This document shows positions 1 through 7,017 of a stretch of DNA of 64,000 nucleotides, piece after piece. Position 1 is the first letter of the stretch; each line of letters begins with the position of its first letter. The stretch comes from Escherichia phage vB_EcoM_OE5505. A program made the translations under genes and the position numbers. The notes under the pieces were generated by a model. The model searched no databases. It was not told the DNA's origin and saw nothing but the letters and a program-made list of their open reading frames with translations. The stretch lies in sequence record NC_054926.1. One strand, 5' to 3'.

Positions 1-89
1 TATGTTTCCTTTAAATATTTTAATTAGTAATTTGTCTCTTCAAGCAACTGTGAATATACTATCACAATTCTAGGAGAAAGTAAACAACT

Positions 90-1058
<969 letters not shown>

Positions 1059-1077
<19 letters not shown>

Positions 1078-1547
1078 TCAGTGATAAAGTTATTTAAATT
1101 TTGAGTATATTTCTTTTCATCAAAAATCTTTTGTTGTCTGCGTAGCCGCCATGGCATTTCAATGAACGTGTACCATATCCCAGATAATATTGATGCTGTA
1201 AAAATATTAACAAGTATGGTTAAAAGAATCCAATCTCCTATTCTGTCCATTGGATTTTTTATAAAAAAGTAAAATACGAATGATGACACAGGAAGACTAA
1301 TGATATACCACAGAAGAGCCTTCTTATCTGTGAACCAATCAGCATTCGTTAACTTAGCGCGACCGTTTTGAATACATACGAACTTATCATCTGTTACAGT
1401 AAATGGCTTAGCTGCTTGATATCCCATTCTAAACTCCCTAATCAACAAATTTTTCATATCTTCGGAACAACCATTCCAGTCAACTCTATCAACTGAAATG
1501 CCATCATCCCCATCATCTAAATCATACCAGCGAGTTTTTAAAATCAT
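1059..1547 (-). CDS. Hypothetical membrane protein (T4 e.2 position)
   Basis: 162 aa ORF, hydrophobic C-terminal half, ends ...FITECRKLK; stop overlaps nudE start. Confidence 0.7.
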
Positions 1548-1906
1548 TTAATTTTCCTACAATCACTCACAAACTCTTCCATTGATTCTTTTTCAATATA
1601 AGACATATAGCTATTATATTCCTTTAATTGTATTTTGTAATCCTTTTTTCTTTGCCAATTTATTTTAAAATTATCATAATGAAAATATAACATGGTACCA
1701 AAGAATGAAAATAATGAAATCGCTATAGTAAAACGAAGTTCACTCCAAACCTCTGTTATAATTACTGTGCCGTCGATATTTAAAATAAAACAGTCAATTA
1801 ACAATCCAATAAGACTACCCGCAAGAGCTGTAAATACTGATACAGCAAGAATTAATAGTGCCTCAGGAAACGAATATTTGACTTTATTTAGTTTTGGCTT
1901 TTGCAT
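1544..1906 (-). CDS. Hypothetical membrane protein (T4 e.3 position)
   Basis: 120 aa ORF with 2-3 predicted TM segments, ends ...FVSDCRKIK; ATGA overlap with downstream gene. Confidence 0.7.
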   Translation of the reverse strand: MQKPKLNKVKYSFPEALLILAVSVFTALAGSLIGLLIDCFILNIDGTVIITEVWSELRFTIAISLFSFFGTMLYFHYDNFKINWQRKKDYKIQLKEYNSYMSYIEKESMEEFVSDCRKIK

Positions 1907-2301
1907 CGTGATTCCTTAACAAATTTCATAATTTCATCAAATTCATACATATCTAGCTTAAGCTGGTGTTCCTTTTTAATCTTTTTACACTGAGCTTTCC
2001 AATCACGTACACGTTTACGATAATGTCTTCCTTGATACCAGTATCCTACCCAATTTACGGGTACTAATAAAAGTGGAACTATTAATGGAAGAATTAGCAT
2101 TAACACAAGTATTTCGCCAGAATCAATATCAGTCATAACATCTAAAACACCTCCAATAATCAATAGAATTACAAATGATATGAGTATAACAGGACCTATT
2201 AACACATCAGTAGAAATTATCTGACGCTTTGGTTCATACTTCACAGGTTTACTTGGAAGGTATAGTGATGGTTTTGACATATTCTCTACATTCCTTAACA
2301 A
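1888..2301 (-). CDS. Hypothetical membrane protein (T4 e.4 position)
   Basis: 137 aa ORF, long hydrophobic core; true start may be internal Met at 2280. Confidence 0.65.
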   Translation of the reverse strand: MLRNVENMSKPSLYLPSKPVKYEPKRQIISTDVLIGPVILISFVILLIIGGVLDVMTDIDSGEILVLMLILPLIVPLLLVPVNWVGYWYQGRHYRKRVRDWKAQCKKIKKEHQLKLDMYEFDEIMKFVKESRCKSQN

Positions 2302-2857
2302 ATTTTTCTAGTAATAAATCACTTTCAAAATTGGGATTTTCTACAAATTTATCAAAAAGATCATCAACAATATTCAAGATATTTCTTTTACTAAGAATAC
2401 GTTTATTTTCATGCTTCGTTTCAGAATCAACTATAAGAGTAAAGAAATATTTCTTTCCCTGAAATTTTACTGTAGTATCAATATAGAATAAATTTGACTT
2501 TTGTAAATTACGTTTAAACCATGCGTCACTTAAACTATAAACACCGAGATAATCAAAATCGTCGTTTAAATAACAAACCGTCCATTCAGGAGAAATGAAA
2601 TCAGTAAATTCAACATCAAAATCACACGTCAATGAATGAATTGATTCAATACTGTTAATGAGTATTCCAGGACGTATTAAAGACTTTTTACCTCTAGAAA
2701 ATCTTCCGGAAAGGCTTTCATCAGTTTCATATGAAGACCCCCAATAGTAATTACGTCCTTCTGCCATGCGTTTAAGAGCATTTAGTAATTGGTCTGGAAC
2801 ATCAACCTGTCTTTGAAACTCTTCAAACATTGAATTGAAATCACTTTGCATTTTCAT
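2249..2857 (-). CDS. Hypothetical protein (T4 e.5 position)
   Basis: 202 aa ORF, soluble, ends ...KFVKECREYVKT overlapping next gene start. Confidence 0.7.
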   Translation of the reverse strand: MKMQSDFNSMFEEFQRQVDVPDQLLNALKRMAEGRNYYWGSSYETDESLSGRFSRGKKSLIRPGILINSIESIHSLTCDFDVEFTDFISPEWTVCYLNDDFDYLGVYSLSDAWFKRNLQKSNLFYIDTTVKFQGKKYFFTLIVDSETKHENKRILSKRNILNIVDDLFDKFVENPNFESDLLLEKFVKECREYVKTITIPSK

Positions 2858-2899
2858 TCCTATTTACTCCAAGTAATAGGGGCCCGAAGCCCCTTATCA

Positions 2900-3493
2900 T
2901 TATTTCAGAGAATTAATATATTCCTGAACATCGGCAGAGGTAGTTTCAACCCCAGAAATATTACCATTAAAGGTTTCAACTCGAGCAAGAGTATCTTCAA
3001 TATCAACCTTAGTCAGTGCTGCAATTTCAACTACATCATCAGCAGTACTAATTCCAAGGGCATTCGCTGCACGAGTTTCACGGATATATTCCAATTTAAC
3101 CGCAAGTTCTTGACGAGCATCATCTAACTCAACTACTTTCTTGGCGATTTCAATTCGCATTTCAGCATAACCGTCAGCCTTAGTAGTCAACTGCTCAGCT
3201 GTTCGACGATATAGTAAACCGAGTTTAGCATGCATTGTTACATCTTGGCCTTCGGAAAGAAGTTTACGAATTTCACGCTCTTTTGATTCGGCCTGTCGAT
3301 TCTTTTCGATAACAAGTTCACGAATACGTTTTTCTTCGTTAATAGATTTAACAGAAGCAGTTTTTAGATCTTTAATTTTATCAAGTAGTTTTGCTGCTGC
3401 AGCAGTATACTGTTCTTCGACAGATAGATTTTTAGCCATAGCAGAACCAAGTTTAGTGCGAATAAACTCAACAATTTTCTTCAGTGTGTTCAT
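2900..3493 (-). CDS. Hypothetical coiled-coil protein (T4 e.6 position)
   Basis: 197 aa ORF, strongly alpha-helical/charged heptad-like composition. Confidence 0.7.
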
Positions 3494-3594
3494 AGTATTT
3501 CCTTAGGTTAATTGAGATTTAAAATCCGTAGGAGTATAATACTCTATCGTCAAATTATAGGCTCATAATATCTCAATCATGAGCCTGCGTAAAC

Positions 3595-3978
3595 TTATTT
3601 CATATTATTGAAATATTCTTCTGCGATTTCGTCGTTATCATGGTAAACTTTAGAAGACAGTTTAACATAACCTTCTGCTGTGAACATATTAATCACAACT
3701 TTTACAGTATACCACTGACCGTCTTCATTACCCATTACTGCGTAAGTTTCAAACATCGGATGATCAGGACCGATAACTTTAATATCATTCACTGTACGAC
3801 CGAAATCTTCTGAAACGCATTTCATAAAGAAGTTGAACAGTTCGCCGTAATTATCCATTTCATTCTCCAAGTTGTTTTCTGTATCAGTAGTTGATAGTTG
3901 TATAGTACCATGGAAGAACAGAGATGTAAACAGTTTTGTGAAAAAATTTTTAGGGAATTCTAGGGCAGGGATGGGCAA
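3595..3978 (-). CDS. Hypothetical protein (T4 e.7 position)
   Basis: 127 aa ORF on same strand as neighbours. Confidence 0.6.
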   Translation of the reverse strand: MPIPALEFPKNFFTKLFTSLFFHGTIQLSTTDTENNLENEMDNYGELFNFFMKCVSEDFGRTVNDIKVIGPDHPMFETYAVMGNEDGQWYTVKVVINMFTAEGYVKLSSKVYHDNDEIAEEYFNNMK

Positions 3979-4054
3979 TTAAAGGATAGGATAATATATT
4001 ATAAAGGGTATAAACTAAATGATGCCTAGAGAGGTCCAGAAAGGCCTAGATACC

Positions 4055-4079
4055 AAAAAGCCCTATCATTTAGATAGGG
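4055..4079 (-). terminator. Rho-independent terminator
   Basis: Minus-strand hairpin CCCTATC-TAAAT-GATAGGG followed by CTTTTT, just downstream of ORF ending at 4088. Confidence 0.6.
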
Positions 4080-4087
4080 ATTTAAAA

Positions 4088-4333
4088 TTATTTACCTAGT
4101 TTACTTATTATAGCTTCTGCAGCAGCTTTTAGCTTAGATGCAGTGTTAATACGATTTTTAATTTCAGTATACGCATCGCCAAGAACATCAAGGCTATCAG
4201 AATAAACACTTACACTATTGCGTTCGCTATTTGAAATAGAACCTTTAGTTTTGCGGTCAAAATCGGTGTACACGTCTTGAAGATCGCGGGCTGCCTTCTT
4301 TGCATCATCCAATGCATCAAGAGCTTTATTCAA
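4088..4333 (-). CDS. Internal-protein-like ORF, probable C-terminal part of a frameshifted IP gene
   Basis: 81 aa ORF with no ATG (only TTG start); contiguous with 4330-4650 in a different frame. Confidence 0.5.
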   Translation of the reverse strand: MNKALDALDDAKKAARDLQDVYTDFDRKTKGSISNSERNSVSVYSDSLDVLGDAYTEIKNRINTASKLKAAAEAIISKLGK

Positions 4334-4650
4334 AGCATTAACGTATTTTTAGTGTCGAACATATTCTTAGAAATTTTAACAGGTGCGCGTTCAGGAGTAG
4401 CTAACACAGATTTAGGAACCTGAGCGCCAGATGCCAATTTCTTAGAAATTTTGAAAAATGCTTTATTGAATTTATTTTCTTGACTCATTGTAAAAGAACT
4501 ATTATCGATGTTGTACATTTCAATAGCTTTAGCTTTCCACTTAAGAAAATCGCCGCGGTCTTTTGGGTCCAATTGGAAGAATACTTTAGTAAGATCTGCT
4601 TCAGATGGTAATTTTGCTGCTTCGGTTAAAAATTCGGCATAGGTTTTCAT
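4330..4650 (-). CDS. Capsid-targeted internal protein (IP-like), N-terminal part
   Basis: Starts MKTYAEFLTEA, matching the T4 internal-protein capsid targeting sequence (MKTYQEFIAE-type); Ala/Lys-rich. Confidence 0.7.
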   Translation of the reverse strand: MKTYAEFLTEAAKLPSEADLTKVFFQLDPKDRGDFLKWKAKAIEMYNIDNSSFTMSQENKFNKAFFKISKKLASGAQVPKSVLATPERAPVKISKNMFDTKNTLML

Positions 4651-4740
4651 TTAAAATCCTTGAAATAATTTATCGGTTGGTTATTAATTATTTATTACTT
4701 TGTTACTATCCGTAACAGCGTTATCCGAGTGATTCAAACT

Positions 4741-4768
4741 AAAAAGCCCCAACCTTTCGGTCGGGGCT
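4741..4768 (-). terminator. Rho-independent terminator (copy 1 of duplicated element)
   Basis: Minus-strand AGCCCCGACC-GAAA-GGTTGGGGCT followed by TTTTT; downstream of ORF ending 4776. Confidence 0.65.
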
Positions 4769-4775
4769 AAGAATG

Positions 4776-5210
4776 TCATTTGATTTGTTTAGCAGACCAA
4801 ATGCGGTCTTTAATAATTTTTTGGATGTCTTCAACATACTCAAGAGAGTGAACATGTGGATTATCTTTGAAACTATAAGCACGGGCTAACTTTTGGCCTT
4901 CGGTTTTGATTACTAAAAGCTCTTTAAGGATAGCTTCATATTTAGCGATAATTCCTTTAACGATATTTTTTTCTTGTGCCGCTTTAGGATCTGCTTTAGG
5001 AGCAGGTTTACCCGAAGCCTTTGCAAAAGCAGCGCCAGTAGCAACTAAACTTTTCCAGGCCATACTAACTGCATTTCCCGTAAATCCTTCCGCTTTCATG
5101 TCGCGTGCAAACTGGAATCGCGATTCATCAGAAGCATCTTTATAGGAATAATTTACCCGCGGCAATGGCAGCTTTTGCAACAGCTTGAATTTCGGTGCTA
5201 GATGCTTCAT
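4776..5210 (-). CDS. Internal-protein-like protein, C-terminal part (frame-shifted relative to its CTS leader)
   Basis: 144 aa ORF; Ala/Lys-rich; N-terminal 22 codons overlap CTS-leader ORF in another frame. Confidence 0.6.
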   Translation of the reverse strand: MKHLAPKFKLLQKLPLPRVNYSYKDASDESRFQFARDMKAEGFTGNAVSMAWKSLVATGAAFAKASGKPAPKADPKAAQEKNIVKGIIAKYEAILKELLVIKTEGQKLARAYSFKDNPHVHSLEYVEDIQKIIKDRIWSAKQIK

Positions 5211-5250
5211 TTAACACCGCTTCATTTAAAAATTGAGTATATGATTTCAT
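5140..5250 (-). CDS. IP capsid-targeting leader ORF (MKSYTQFLNEA...), 36 codons then stop
   Basis: ATG at 5248-5250 preceded by AGGAAATAAG RBS and late promoter; CTS-like N-terminus; stops at 5140. Confidence 0.45.
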   Translation of the reverse strand: MKSYTQFLNEAVLNEASSTEIQAVAKAAIAAGKLFL

Positions 5251-5288
5251 CTTATTTCCTGTTTTAATTTGTAGATTTAATATACTAA

Positions 5289-5296
5289 TATTTATA
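5289..5296 (-). promoter_or_regulatory. T4-type late promoter box TATAAATA
   Basis: TATAAATA on minus strand about 40 nt upstream of CTS-leader ATG at 5250. Confidence 0.55.
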
Positions 5297-5298
5297 CC

Positions 5299-5326
5299 AA
5301 AAAGCCCCAACCTTTCGGTCGGGGCT
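5299..5326 (-). terminator. Rho-independent terminator (copy 2, identical to 4741-4768)
   Basis: Identical hairpin plus T-run; lies between the stable-RNA region and the IP late promoter. Confidence 0.6.
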
Positions 5327-5329
5327 AAG

Positions 5330-5633
5330 CCTTGCGGCAACCTTGTCGGGGTTCCACCTGCTAAGGCAAGTGTTTGTACGAAACGCCGGGATTCGAACCC
5401 GGTTATTAAGTAGTTGACGCTACTCAATATTTTTAAAAGGCCATATCTCGACCATATCCGAACGTTCCGTCAAAAACGCTACTCGGCTTACGGCAAAGAT
5501 ATTTCCTCGAATCGATAATTCGGTGCGCCGTTTCTGCTGTGATAGTAAAGAGCCAGAACACAGTAAAACTGTGGGAGGAAACTATACTCCAGGGAACATC
5601 AGTCCGACGACTTACCGGTAGCGACCCGGTTTC
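5330..5633 (-). ncRNA. Candidate stable small RNA(s) at the distal end of the tRNA cluster
   Basis: No ORF; tRNA-like T-arm CCGGG-TTCGAAT-CCCGG at 5386-5402 but no complete cloverleaf; position matches where T4 has stable RNA species 1/2. Confidence 0.3.
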
Positions 5634-5984
5634 TTAATATTCTTTTAAAGAATCAATATATTCACGGCGTTTACGCCACAAATCAATTGCTTCATACGCG
5701 GATTCAGCATTTCGAATTAGCCGGCATTTATGTAAAGACTTATGATTTTGATATTGTGTAGATAACGGAATTGTATCTAAAAGGTCTTTACGATCAAAAT
5801 ATTCGTAACCATCTAAACCAAATGAACGATTTTTGAGAAATTGCCAATGACCATATTCGTTTTCGACATAAACATAATCTGCATGCTGATAAAGCAAATT
5901 AATTACACGTTCAGAAATAACAGTATCATTATGATTAAAATAGAATGTTAAATCATGAACTACTAAATAAACATTACCTTTCAT
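5634..5984 (-). CDS. Hypothetical protein within tRNA cluster
   Basis: 116 aa ORF between tRNA-Arg and the RNA region, same strand. Confidence 0.6.
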   Translation of the reverse strand: MKGNVYLVVHDLTFYFNHNDTVISERVINLLYQHADYVYVENEYGHWQFLKNRSFGLDGYEYFDRKDLLDTIPLSTQYQNHKSLHKCRLIRNAESAYEAIDLWRKRREYIDSLKEY

Positions 5985-6002
5985 ATTTTCCTCACTTATA
6001 AT

Positions 6003-6438: not shown

Positions 6439-6447
6439 AAATTAATT

Positions 6448-6522
6448 TGGTGGCCCTGGGTGGAATTGAACCACCATCTGGCGATTATGAGTCGCTTGCT
6501 TGAACCTTCCAGCTACAGGGCC
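6448..6522 (-). tRNA. tRNA with CAU anticodon (Ile-lysidine type or Met)
   Basis: 75 nt cloverleaf, anticodon loop CUCAUAA; T4 tRNA-Ile also carries CAU. Confidence 0.75.
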
Positions 6523-6531
6523 AAATTTTTC

Positions 6532-7017
6532 TTATTTTATGTAATATTTATTTAAAAACTTTCTAGCTTGAGTATGGCTAACATTTATAGCGTTTGCATA
6601 ATTTTTAATAAAACCTCGTTCATCCATATTAAAATTTTCTAATATTTTTAATCGTCTAATTATCTCATCTTGGCTTAAGGTACTTGCATTATTTTTAGAA
6701 ATTTTTTCTAAAGACTGCACTGAGTGTTTTCGACCATTAAAATTAAAATTTTTAGGTTTTGGAGGAAATCTATCATTTAGTCTCGCATCTTTTGTATTTT
6801 GATTATTAGTTGCGCAATATATGTTATTTAATGAGTATGGTCCTTTATCACCAAAACGACACATACAGTATTCATGACCCTTTCTTCCACGCTTATCATA
6901 ATTTCCTGTTGATTTCCACCAATTTAACCACTCATCAAAAGTTAAATTCCATTCAATGTTTCTACGTATAGCAGAATTCCGCTGAGAAATATATTTTGCA
7001 TAATCTTCTTTCATCAC
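6532..7017 (-). CDS. Homing-endonuclease-like protein (degenerate HNH-like N-terminus, C-terminal HTH)
   Basis: 161 aa; Cys/His motif GHEYCMCRF...LNNIYCATNNQN; C-terminal ...NVSHTQARKFLNKYY resembles the HTH tail of the adjacent HNH ORF. Confidence 0.6.
   Translation of the reverse strand: MMKEDYAKYISQRNSAIRRNIEWNLTFDEWLNWWKSTGNYDKRGRKGHEYCMCRFGDKGPYSLNNIYCATNNQNTKDARLNDRFPPKPKNFNFNGRKHSVQSLEKISKNNASTLSQDEIIRRLKILENFNMDERGFIKNYANAINVSHTQARKFLNKYYIK

Follow-up and report, generated by a model that had tools for sequence, protein, structure and literature searches.

A conserved C-terminal peptide at the e.2-e.5 gene junctions of T4-like phages probably shares its tolerant codons with the Shine-Dalgarno sequence of the next gene

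Translational coupling, with the Shine-Dalgarno (SD) sequence of a downstream gene located inside the upstream open reading frame (ORF) and the two genes overlapping by ATGA or TAATG, is a classical operon architecture. Another type of boundary element has been described in the hyperplastic regions of T4-type phage genomes, namely the promoter-early stem-loop (PeSL), an intergenic sequence of about 50 bp comprising a sigma-70 promoter and a terminator hairpin (Arbiol et al. 2010, PMC2839356; Comeau et al. 2014, PMC4122927). PeSLs recur at gene boundaries, bound whole-gene insertions and deletions, supply a signal needed to express the incoming or remaining gene, and act on transcription (PMC2839356; PMC4122927). 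Here we analyse the genes e.2 to e.5 of Escherichia phage vB_EcoM_OE5505 (sequence record NC_054926.1) in a stretch of 64,000 nucleotides (nt), hereafter the window, which is a segment of a Tequatrovirus (T4-like) genome. These genes were known as hypothetical ORFs, and coupling and repeat-mediated deletion were known as processes. We consider it probable that the small proteins of this cluster carry an old C-terminal motif maintained at the protein level, that the SD of the next gene has been written into the tolerant codons of this motif, and that the resulting repeats at the junctions permit gene loss.

An earlier reading of the window, made from the sequence alone (the sequence-only reading), had pointed to four successive minus-strand ORFs with similar ends, and all four peptides and junction strings are present exactly as it quoted them (Table 1). 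The e.2 protein ends FITECRKLK, e.3 ends EEFVSDCRKIK, e.4 ends KFVKESRCKSQN and e.5 ends KFVKECREYVKTITIPSK. The predicted SD of the next gene lies inside the upstream coding sequence at all four junctions, as had been proposed, and the genes are packed head to tail, with zero intergenic bases from the start of e.5 to the stop of nudE and successive overlaps of 32, 19, 4 and 4 nt. The ATGA stop-start overlap, which had been called frequent, is thus found at two of the four junctions, e.3/e.2 and e.2/nudE, whereas the other two have the longer overlaps. The best duplexes with the anti-SD sequence are formed by AGGAA(A), 6 nt before the ATG of both e.2 and nudE, and by AAGGAA, 5 nt before that of e.3 and 10 nt before that of e.4. 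Their energies range from -4.2 to -6.1 kcal/mol, and all of them, 5-10 nt from the ATG, are within the preceding ORF. A RegB cleavage site (GGAG) was rejected, as the SD sequences of the window are AAGGAA and AGGAAA. At junction 1, nudE has an alternative upstream ATG at 1077 (151 amino acids, aa) within the motif codons of e.2 (GA ATG CAG), without an SD; the start at 1062 (146 aa) has AGGAAA 7 nt before it, and the 146-aa form is used in the annotations of relatives.

The four junctions pair up in their DNA, the end of e.2 with that of e.3 and the end of e.4 with that of e.5. TGYAGGAAA is found solely in the first pair, and the exact 16-mer AAATTTGTTAAGGAAT solely in the second (junctions 3 and 4). 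The SD falls on the R-K codons in e.2 and e.3 and on the K-E codons, three codons earlier, in e.4 and e.5, while the F, I/V, C/S and R positions stay aligned. An SD cassette therefore cannot explain those residues. In the six frames of the 64 kb, F[IV]x[DE][CS]R has four matches, each at one of these C-termini, as compared with 0.58 in shuffles; as the pattern was derived from the four ends, independent evidence comes from their position and from conservation in relatives. A chance origin of the four shared C-termini is excluded.

We surveyed relatives by anchoring on e.6 (1,098 phage records) and reading the genes downstream, which covered 12 T4-like genera overall; those reached through e.6 were Marfavirus, Kanagawavirus, Jiaodavirus, Winklervirus, Tegunavirus, Biquartavirus (Aeromonas phage), Roskildevirus and Pseudotevenvirus. 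In the 12 genera, many small proteins of the e.6-to-nudE region, some soluble and others with two transmembrane (TM) segments (2-TM), carry [FW]-[IVL]-x-x-C-[RK] at their C-terminus or close to it. The e.6 gene is directly upstream of an e.5-like motif protein in 12 of 12 genera. The e.5-like body varies from 95 to 306 aa, and in the genera reached through e.6 its motif reads FIKHCR, FVDQCR, FIKYCR, FVKMCR, FIDQCR, FIDYCR, FINMCR or FIHSCK. Further small proteins, mainly 2-TM, share this ending in most of the genera surveyed (FLKEIRK, FIKNVRRK, FIKEVRRK, WIRSCRK, WIKEMK, FIKECR, FIKGCRK, FITYCRGNK, YVKECRRK and FIKEVRQ). Among the ORFs of 12 representative stretches from ten genera (FBB1 and RB43 are outside this count), 28 matches fall in the last 20 residues (3,800 aa) versus a single one in 19,356 internal residues. 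In 127.5 kb of Tequatrovirus DNA (the window and U115 1-63,500, the last ~40 kb of structural genes being outside), the only carriers are e.5, e.3 and e.2, together with the Ser variant e.4.

Apart from their tails these proteins differ widely. After masking of the tails, 32 carriers fell into 17 BLASTP groups with two architectures, a number that is an upper bound on distinct families, remote homology being likely within each architecture. Across the 12 genera the carriers are otherwise 20-40% identical and use different codons. Homology between the tails of e.3 and e.4 extends through 44 columns (hhalign 90%, E = 1.8e-6), and e.2 and e.5 align with other tails over their last 11-14 residues only. 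The bodies of the carriers cannot be aligned. The likeness thus belongs to a wider protein homology, independent of the junction, both in the e.3/e.4 alignment and in the spread of the motif across genera, which is the outcome that the sequence-only reading had named as its refutation. A word-indexed search with the tail profile returned only 14 short fragments of the same families. A HMMER scan of 1.84 billion representatives with this profile, which is too short to reach beyond close relatives, gave 12 matches at E ≤ 0.001; the inspected ones, which did not include P0129 (2,996 aa), are T4-like except P0131. The latter (378 aa, metagenome, eukaryote-like) comprises four repeats, each with TPLSKFVANCRRKY, carries LSKFVANCRRKY, and owes its E = 7e-4 to summing over the repeats. 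We took it as a chance likeness of a helix and rejected it as a relative of the motif.

Orthologous genes reveal how the SD moves with respect to the motif. The e.3 protein ends FVSDCRKIK in Tequatrovirus (next ATG at +26), FIKECRK in RB69 (Mosigvirus; +20) and FIKECKS in Gaprivervirus/Dhakavirus. In RB69 and Gaprivervirus/Dhakavirus a different gene follows e.3; its SD, AAGGAA, is on the K-E codons, and its ATG lies 20 nt from the F codon. The e.2 protein ends FITECRKLK (+26) in Tequatrovirus, FITECRNLR in RB69 and FIEECRK (GAGGAA, +20) in Dhakavirus; it is separated from e.3 by ~4 kb in RB69 and ~2.3 kb in VR5 (Dhakavirus), and is followed by ORF130c/121. The protein at the e.5 position in Gaprivervirus/Dhakavirus is ~20% identical to T4-type e.5, with a collinear body segment detected by hhalign (80%, E = 1.5e-5), and F-I-x-E-C-R-E-Y-x-K is nearly invariant between the two. 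Among the e.5 proteins of Tequatrovirus, Mosigvirus and Gaprivervirus/Dhakavirus, F-x-x-x-C-R-E-Y-x-K (F186, C190-Y193 and K195, with E189 at least 90% conserved) is the sole contiguous invariant run. In Gaprivervirus/Dhakavirus e.5, 40 nt separate the motif from the next start, for which a separate SD (AAAGAGG) is present; here x is unconstrained (T, A, or K from AAA) and CGY encodes Arg. The 2-TM protein ORF133c of RB69 ends FIKECRGK, encoded by TTC ATT AAA GAA TGT CGA GGA AAA with GAGGAAA as the SD. Finally, the motif is found without an overlapping downstream gene in KP1_111, Asfd1_116, phiR1-RT g130 and the e.5-like protein of RB43, in which FIHSCK is located 25 residues from the stop; in these and in a Dhakavirus 109-aa ORF, the next start is at a distance of 40-95 nt or across an intergenic gap.

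For 40 motif instances, we recorded how far the annotated next start lies from the F codon and where the SD core (GGA, GAG or AGG) falls. At 17-23 nt (19 instances), the core is in positions +2/+3 in 18 cases, with K-E in 13, and in +5/+6 in two. At 25-32 nt (11 instances), it is never in +2/+3 and always in +5/+6 (AGG-AAA, AGA-GGT, CGA-GGA, CGT-GAG and similar). At 40 nt or more (nine instances), there is none in +2/+3 and one in +5/+6, taken as chance. The difference between 17-23 nt and at least 25 nt is marked both for an SD core in +2/+3 (18/19 versus 0/20, Fisher p = 3e-10) and for K-E (13/19 versus 1/20, Fisher p = 4e-5), with the caveat, which tells against our interpretation, that many of the 40 instances are orthologues and the tests overstate their independence. 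The most distant group, with next starts 40-95 nt away, includes motifs before a 28-40 nt intergenic gap as well as RB43; its +2/+3 residues are diverse (AE, TE, KM, DQ, AK, DY, EY, HS), and F, I/V, C and R are kept. Over the whole set, the information content is 3.98 bits for F, 3.98 for R, 3.31 for I/V and 3.16 for C, and ~2.0 for +2/+3. The core codons vary synonymously (TTT 24 and TTC 11; ATT, ATC and ATA; TGT 20 and TGC 9; AGA, AGG, CGT, CGC and CGA).

These data bear on the model of the sequence-only reading, in which the peptide is merely what a reused coupling cassette (SD, spacer and ATG(A)) happens to encode and selection acts on the RNA signal only. An SD is indeed present within every motif of the window. 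The residues K-E (AAGGAA) and R-K (AGGAAA) follow its position and are dictated by it, and the Gaprivervirus/Dhakavirus ends AKEVQN (e.5) and IKEVRN (e.4) are alike only through GAGGTTC-nn-AATG. The by-product idea is thus right for two residues. It is wrong for the motif: F, I/V and C, which play no part in the SD, are the most conserved positions, the SD occupies different codons at different junctions, the core varies synonymously, and nine motifs are kept although the next start is 40-95 nt away or a gap follows. As an account of the whole peptide the cassette model is largely refuted, and we hold it to be very unlikely. Since the SD has moved in orthologues that keep the motif, the core has changed synonymously and the motif persists where no start is near, the core appears to be under protein-level selection, with a K-E or R-K flavour that the downstream SD would impose.

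In the mechanism that we favour, a helical tail end would be shared by the small accessory proteins encoded from e.6 to nudE, whether 2-TM hairpins or soluble e.5-like proteins. Spacer-free packing together with coupling would force each downstream SD into the upstream ORF, on tolerant codons 5-10 nt before the start. The SD would be accommodated either on the variable positions, where AAG-GAA gives K-E (e.4 and e.5), or on the Arg and the following codon, where AGG-AAA gives R-K (e.2 and e.3). A protein motif with an embedded SD would explain both the peptide likeness and the DNA-level likeness of the junctions, and would turn successive junctions into short imperfect direct repeats. Recombination at these repeats would then delete a whole gene and keep the upstream C-terminus, the SD and the coupling. 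We infer SD use and translational coupling from the sequence and spacing of the junctions, which are reminiscent of classical coupling in their same-strand overlaps of 4-32 nt and in an SD 5-10 nt before the start in the preceding ORF. Unlike in the classical arrangement, the SD appears to be superimposed on a conserved peptide and to shift between two codon pairs with the position of the start.

The fate of the junctions in relatives is consistent with this mechanism. Junctions 1 and 2 are imperfect direct repeats, 24/30 identical, with a TGCAGGAAA core and 485 nt apart. In T2, PP01 and ZN18, which lack e.2, the e.3 sequence extends to GATTGCAGGAAA and is followed by e.2-type TTAAAATGAAAAC into nudE. 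This is the exact product of a crossover within the core, junction 1 being the right-hand and junction 2 the left-hand repeat. A contiguous e.3/nudE junction is present in at least 55 phage records, including T2, PST, RB32, RB33 and PP01, and the ~497 Tequatrovirus-type e.3 matches versus 446 e.2 matches are consistent with e.2 losses. The absence of e.2 is derived, by deletion, because RB69 and Dhakavirus keep e.2 upstream of nudE. The one-base difference next to the junction between T2/PP01 (FVSD) and ZN18 (FVID) does not demonstrate that the deletion recurred independently, as a later point mutation would explain it. In Gaprivervirus phages of the VR7 type the order is e.5-e.4-e.3, and the sequence is AAAGAGGTTCAAAATGCGAACG where e.4 starts and AAGGAGGTTCGTAATGGAACGG where e.3 starts. 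The e.4 gene is missing from Dhakavirus-type phages, which have AAAGAGGTTCAAAATGGAACGG, the junction AAAGAGGTTCAAAATG/GAACGG being located between two SD-to-ATG repeats. Each of the two losses, of e.2 and of e.4, spans a single gene between successive start codons and leaves frame, C-terminus and SD intact. The proposal that junction DNA recurs and marks cassette boundaries thus stands, both genes being missing exactly from junction to junction in some relatives.

Several observations weigh against our interpretation. The e.4 deletion has a crossover with only ~4 nt (AATG) of identity, and other deletions in the cluster (e.5::e.4 in A2, e.4::e.2 in P0127) end outside the junctions, which are thus not the sole breakpoints. 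Moreover, an excess of junction-to-junction events could result from nothing more than selection for deletions that are viable and preserve coupling. The Cys is replaced by S, I or V in the e.4 family and by I, L or M in some members from FBB1 and KP1, so that Cys is not essential to the motif. Finally, the e.2 and e.3 ends of Tequatrovirus share a derived long form (CRK[IL]K; AGGAAA, A/T spacer and ATGA) that is absent from the e.3 orthologues, and some DNA-level copying between junctions is likely.

The first two points are those expected if the precise losses of e.2 and e.4 were not caused by repeats at all, deletions arising anywhere and selection retaining the ones that keep the frame, the SD and the coupling. 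We regard this as possible although rather doubtful, since the e.2 crossover took place in the longest identical block, TGCAGGAAA, of the 24/30 identity, as expected of a short-repeat substrate. The two accounts are not exclusive: we infer that recombination between the repeats caused the losses, and selection of outcomes that preserve coupling may have had an equal share.

Copying could also be taken further: the junction DNA might have been transferred recently between neighbours, by tandem duplication, gene conversion or cassette insertion, and be alike simply because it has not diverged, with no need for selection on the peptide. The exact 16-mer common to the e.4 and e.5 ends would fit this explanation, as would the absence of the long form from the RB69 and Gaprivervirus e.3 orthologues and the V at +1 in three Tequatrovirus genes versus I in Gaprivervirus, a hint of concerted change. 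The likeness between junctions 1 and 2 also extends past the start codons, where 1029-1047 and 1513-1531 are 15/19 identical (GCTGGTAT.AT.T..ATGA). This match, which is read in different frames (SAGIIF in nudE, RWYDLD in e.2), lengthens the homology tract between the repeats. We considered it as a trace of duplication and judge it probably a coincidence, since both N-termini are conserved among the respective orthologues (RWYDLDDGD in e.2, LSAGIIF in nudE). A purely DNA-level legacy is improbable, given protein bodies that cannot be aligned and a motif kept across the 12 genera in such divergent proteins with different codons.

Other rearrangements were observed in the cluster. In Shigella phage A2 (L003:2400-3137), an in-frame e.5::e.4 fusion of 245 aa (KRNLQKSNL/LYLPSEPVKYEL) consists of the 121 N-terminal residues of e.5 followed by e.4 starting at residue 6; the two parts meet at a short microhomology of the CTATA type, and the endpoint is not at a junction motif. 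Of two metagenome/phage OLB35 proteins, P0127 (106 aa, metagenomic) consists of e.4 residues 1-31 fused to e.2 from SFVFYFFIKNP, and P0005 (60 aa) of an RB69-type e.3 tail (LLAKRENETIE) joined to an e.4 tail (AVKKYEYEEAMEFVKEIRCKSLN). In T4 itself (L004, OZ209057.1), a 1-nt deletion in an A-run of e.2 changes TATAAAAAATCC to TAT-AAAAATCC (equivalent to 1240-1247 in the window) and splits the gene into a 102-aa ORF and a 63-aa ORF, the latter still ending FITECRKLK; e.2 of the window phage is intact (162 aa).

The junctions resemble PeSLs in behaviour only, as short conserved boundary sequences that carry an expression signal and whose copies bound the e.2 and e.4 losses. Unlike PeSLs, they are part of the coding sequence, where a signal for translation coincides with the codons of a conserved peptide. 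Promoter-like matches in 1-5500 were at chance level (24 versus 21.4 expected), none of them at a junction, and no terminator-like site was found on the minus strand of 1059-2310. With neither promoter, terminator nor intergenic DNA at the four junctions, their membership among PeSLs is ruled out. In the loss of genes from T4-type genomes, the junctions may be seen as doing within coding sequence what PeSLs do between genes. PeSL-like terminator repeats are located upstream, in the e.7/e.8 part, and not in the spacer-free e.5-nudE block. They are three intergenic elements of ~40 nt, each following a small ORF at a spacing of 558-686 nt, with a GC-rich hairpin and T-run (AGCCCCGACCGAAAGGTTGGGGCTTTTT), and two copies are 93% identical.

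The gene map of the locus is given in Table 1, in which coordinates refer to the window unless a record handle is stated. The minus-strand order is e.6-e.5-e.4-e.3-e.2-nudE-e. The names e.2 to e.5 are backed by annotated relatives with matching synteny (PP01, T2 and Shfl2) and by PHROG families 2203, 2330, 2604 and 2607, whose profile matches span essentially the entire e.2, e.3, e.4 and e.5 proteins, respectively. The spacer between e.6 and e.5 is the sole intergenic DNA between e.6 and nudE and forms the upstream edge of the gap-free block.

Table 1. Features of the e.6-e region, boundary elements upstream of it and C-terminal arrays in related phages. CDS, coding sequence; E, expectation value.
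Feature	Coordinates	Strand	Details
e, lysozyme	90-584	minus	
nudE (e.1), NUDIX hydrolase, final gene of block	622-1062	minus	Pfam NUDIX E = 3.7e-13
Junction 1, e.2 end/nudE start	1059-1088 (1088-1059 as read)	minus	TTTATCACTGAATGCAGGAAATTAAAATGA; TTT ATC ACT GAA TGC AGG AAA TTA AAA TGA; SD AGGAAA on R-K codons; ATGA stop-start overlap
e.2 CDS, 162 aa	1059-1547	minus	phrog_2203, E = 1.6e-77
Junction 2, e.3 end/e.2 start	1544-1573 (1573-1544 as read)	minus	TTTGTGAGTGATTGTAGGAAAATTAAATGA; TTT GTG AGT GAT TGT AGG AAA ATT AAA TGA; SD AGGAAA on R-K codons; ATGA stop-start overlap
e.3 CDS, 120 aa	1544-1906	minus	phrog_2330, E = 2.2e-58
Junction 3, e.4 motif/e.3 start	1904-1923 (1923-1904 as read)	minus	TTTGTTAAGGAATCACGATG; TTT GTT AAG GAA TCA CGA TG; SD AAGGAA on K-E codons; 19-nt gene overlap
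e.4 CDS, 130 aa	1888-2280	minus	phrog_2604, E = 1.4e-70
Junction 4, e.5 motif/e.4 start	2278-2302 (2302-2278 as read)	minus	TTTGTTAAGGAATGTAGAGAATATG; TTT GTT AAG GAA TGT AGA GAA TAT G; SD AAGGAA on K-E codons; 32-nt gene overlap
e.5 CDS, 202 aa	2249-2857	minus	phrog_2607, E = 2.4e-109
e.6-e.5 intergenic spacer	2858-2899	minus	GC-rich UUCG hairpin (2878-2894)
e.6, 197 aa, predicted helical	2900-3493	minus	present in 1,098 phage records
PeSL-like intergenic element	4046-4085	minus (hairpin)	hairpin 4079-4061
PeSL-like intergenic element	4732-4771	minus (hairpin)	hairpin 4768-4745
PeSL-like intergenic element	5290-5329	minus (hairpin)	hairpin 5326-5303
W-S-S-C array, RB69	L005:2857-3652		
W-S-S-C array, VR7	L006:2851-4110		
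W-S-S-C arrays, Marfa	L025:5067-6116, 6442-6639		
W-S-S-C arrays	L026:5210-6276, 6606-6803		
W-S-S-C array	L028:5332-5891		
W-S-S-C array	L029:5059-5800		

Three of the four proteins had been proposed to be membrane proteins, and e.2, e.3 and e.4 are predicted to have two hydrophobic segments each, followed by a basic stretch, whereas e.5 has none. The e.2 protein comprises an acidic N-terminal domain, TM segments 78-96 and 106-129, a basic stretch and the motif tail. The e.3 protein is a TM hairpin followed by a long helix, judged cytoplasmic, that ends SMEEFVSDCRKIK; e.4 has two TM segments and a tail ending EIMKFVKESRCKSQN, the variant with Ser replacing Cys; e.5 is a soluble protein ending LLEKFVKECREYVKTITIPSK. 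An AlphaFold2 model of e.3 (33 sequences; predicted local distance difference test, pLDDT, 86.7) agrees with the membrane prediction, in that residues 13-45 form a TM helix and residues 58-119 one unbroken helix from TM2 to the motif. This helix would project ~45 residues from the membrane beyond TM2, probably into the cytoplasm, because basic residues follow TM2. The AlphaFold2 model of e.5 is poor (pLDDT 58.5), with a terminal helix predicted at 183-196. Structural matches in BFVD were limited to uncharacterised T4-like phage proteins for e.5, and to relatives and generic helical hairpins for e.3. Searches with e.2-e.6 of NCBIfam, PADLOC, PDB sequences and a Pfam-A copy that lacked the models PF26873, PF26876 and PF26896 returned sub-threshold noise only; these three labels, newer Pfam entries for single families, stand on relatives. 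No Rfam match was found in 1-6000 of the window.

The extended consensus of the motif is [LIV](-3)-[EN](-2)-x-F-[IV]-x-x-C-R-[K/G/E/R], and its general form is hydrophobic(-3)-x-x-[FW]-[IVL]-x-x-[C, sometimes V/I/S/M/L]-[RK]. The hydrophobic positions -3, 0, +1 and +4 fit one face of a helix, and the tolerance of V, I, S, M and L at +4 favours a packing contact over thiol chemistry. The function that we prefer, although it is less likely than not to be right, is that of an amphipathic docking or oligomerisation helix at the tip of the tail, which would bind one common partner. The e.6 protein is a candidate for this partner because its gene is always adjacent to a motif-bearing e.5-like gene, in 12/12 genera. 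More speculatively, and with doubt prevailing, the F-I-x-x-C-R tail might be a portable docking tag that brings diverse 2-TM and soluble bodies to one hub. If so, the hub might be e.6 or a machine of the host, cytoplasmic or in the inner membrane, and the e.6-nudE region would be an arsenal of tagged accessory effectors, whose bodies are swapped, fused and deleted while the tag and the next start are kept as a dual-coded unit.

MinD and FtsA have C-terminal amphipathic helices that target them to the membrane, and the motif might likewise lay the tip of the tail, or the soluble e.5-like proteins, on the inner membrane. The motif shares with those helices its short length and its location at the extreme C-terminus, and K/R flank its hydrophobic positions -3, 0, +1 and +4. 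A helix is predicted, its hydrophobic moment is 0.45-0.68 over 11 residues, and the carriers co-occur with membrane proteins. However, acidic residues are common at -2, -1 and +3, the identity of F, C and R is far stricter than amphipathicity requires, the motif in the e.3 model ends a helix ~45 residues out from TM2, and the RB43 motif is internal. We consider membrane targeting the main alternative to docking, and an unlikely function.

The internal proteins of T4 carry an N-terminal capsid targeting sequence (CTS), which the prohead protease cuts after (L/I)xE. The motif resembles the CTS in that a short terminal peptide recurs on small phage proteins whose bodies are unrelated and whose genes lie in one part of the genome; the local sequences are also similar (EFIAE in the CTS, EFIKE here). 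In contrast to the CTS, it is C-terminal and most of its carriers are membrane proteins, so that the analogy is one of logic only. Glu is at +3 in 21 of the 40 motif instances and is not conserved outside a few genera (KY, DQ, QM, HS). A CTS or prohead protease site (I-x-E) was therefore rejected on account of the wrong terminus, the membrane proteins and the non-conserved Glu. Two small minus-strand ORFs do resemble the N-terminal CTS of the T4 internal proteins, MKTYQEFIAE: the ORF at 4330-4650 (start 4650) begins MKTYAEFLTEAAKL and another at ~9640 begins MKTFKEFATK. Together with the F-I-x-x-C-R tails, such CTS-like ORFs would make this neighbourhood rich in short terminal tags.

Neither the cross-family F-I-x-x-C-R tail nor the sliding SD was described in the open-access literature that we searched, which also offered nothing usable on T4 e.2-e.5/nudE or on C-terminal bias caused by an SD. 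The locus is not a new kind of system; it provides a useful, testable handle and a neat case of dual coding. The conserved C-terminal helix motif is a concrete handle on T4-like genes of no known function, and a peptide of 12-15 residues could be used as bait for partners. As natural dual coding the locus is unusually clean, a ribosome-binding site that moves between two codon pairs fixing the amino acids there. For annotation, K-E or R-K at such C-termini should not be taken for functional residues, and in recoded or synthetic phages, synonymous recoding of these ends would silence the next gene.

A different C-terminal peptide is found in the same hyperplastic region of RB69, VR7, Marfa, IME523, X20 and phiR1-RT, which encode tandem paralogues of 65-100 aa ending W-[VI]-S-S-S-x-x-C, with the variants W-Y-N-S-S-M-S-C and W-x-P-S-S-C, usually followed by TAAGGAAAnnnnATG. 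These W-S-S-C arrays are located downstream of e.3, or of a 2-TM motif gene that follows an e.5-like gene. Like the window genes, they are serial small genes with a Cys-containing C-terminal peptide. They differ in the motif itself, in an SD placed after the stop codon and in members that are paralogous over their full length, and they are absent from the window.

Two observations concern the genes that flank the block. The e.6 protein is at least 98% identical in most Tequatrovirus records and recognisable down to RB43 (31%), with no family match; several public records label it 'host specificity protein', a label for which we found no evidence. In a T2 record (L002, LC348380.1), an annotated ORF of 323 aa at 533-1504 extends from the start of nudE to the end of lysozyme e, beside a separate e CDS, and this read-through may mean that the nudE stop has really been lost, or may be an artefact of sequencing or annotation.

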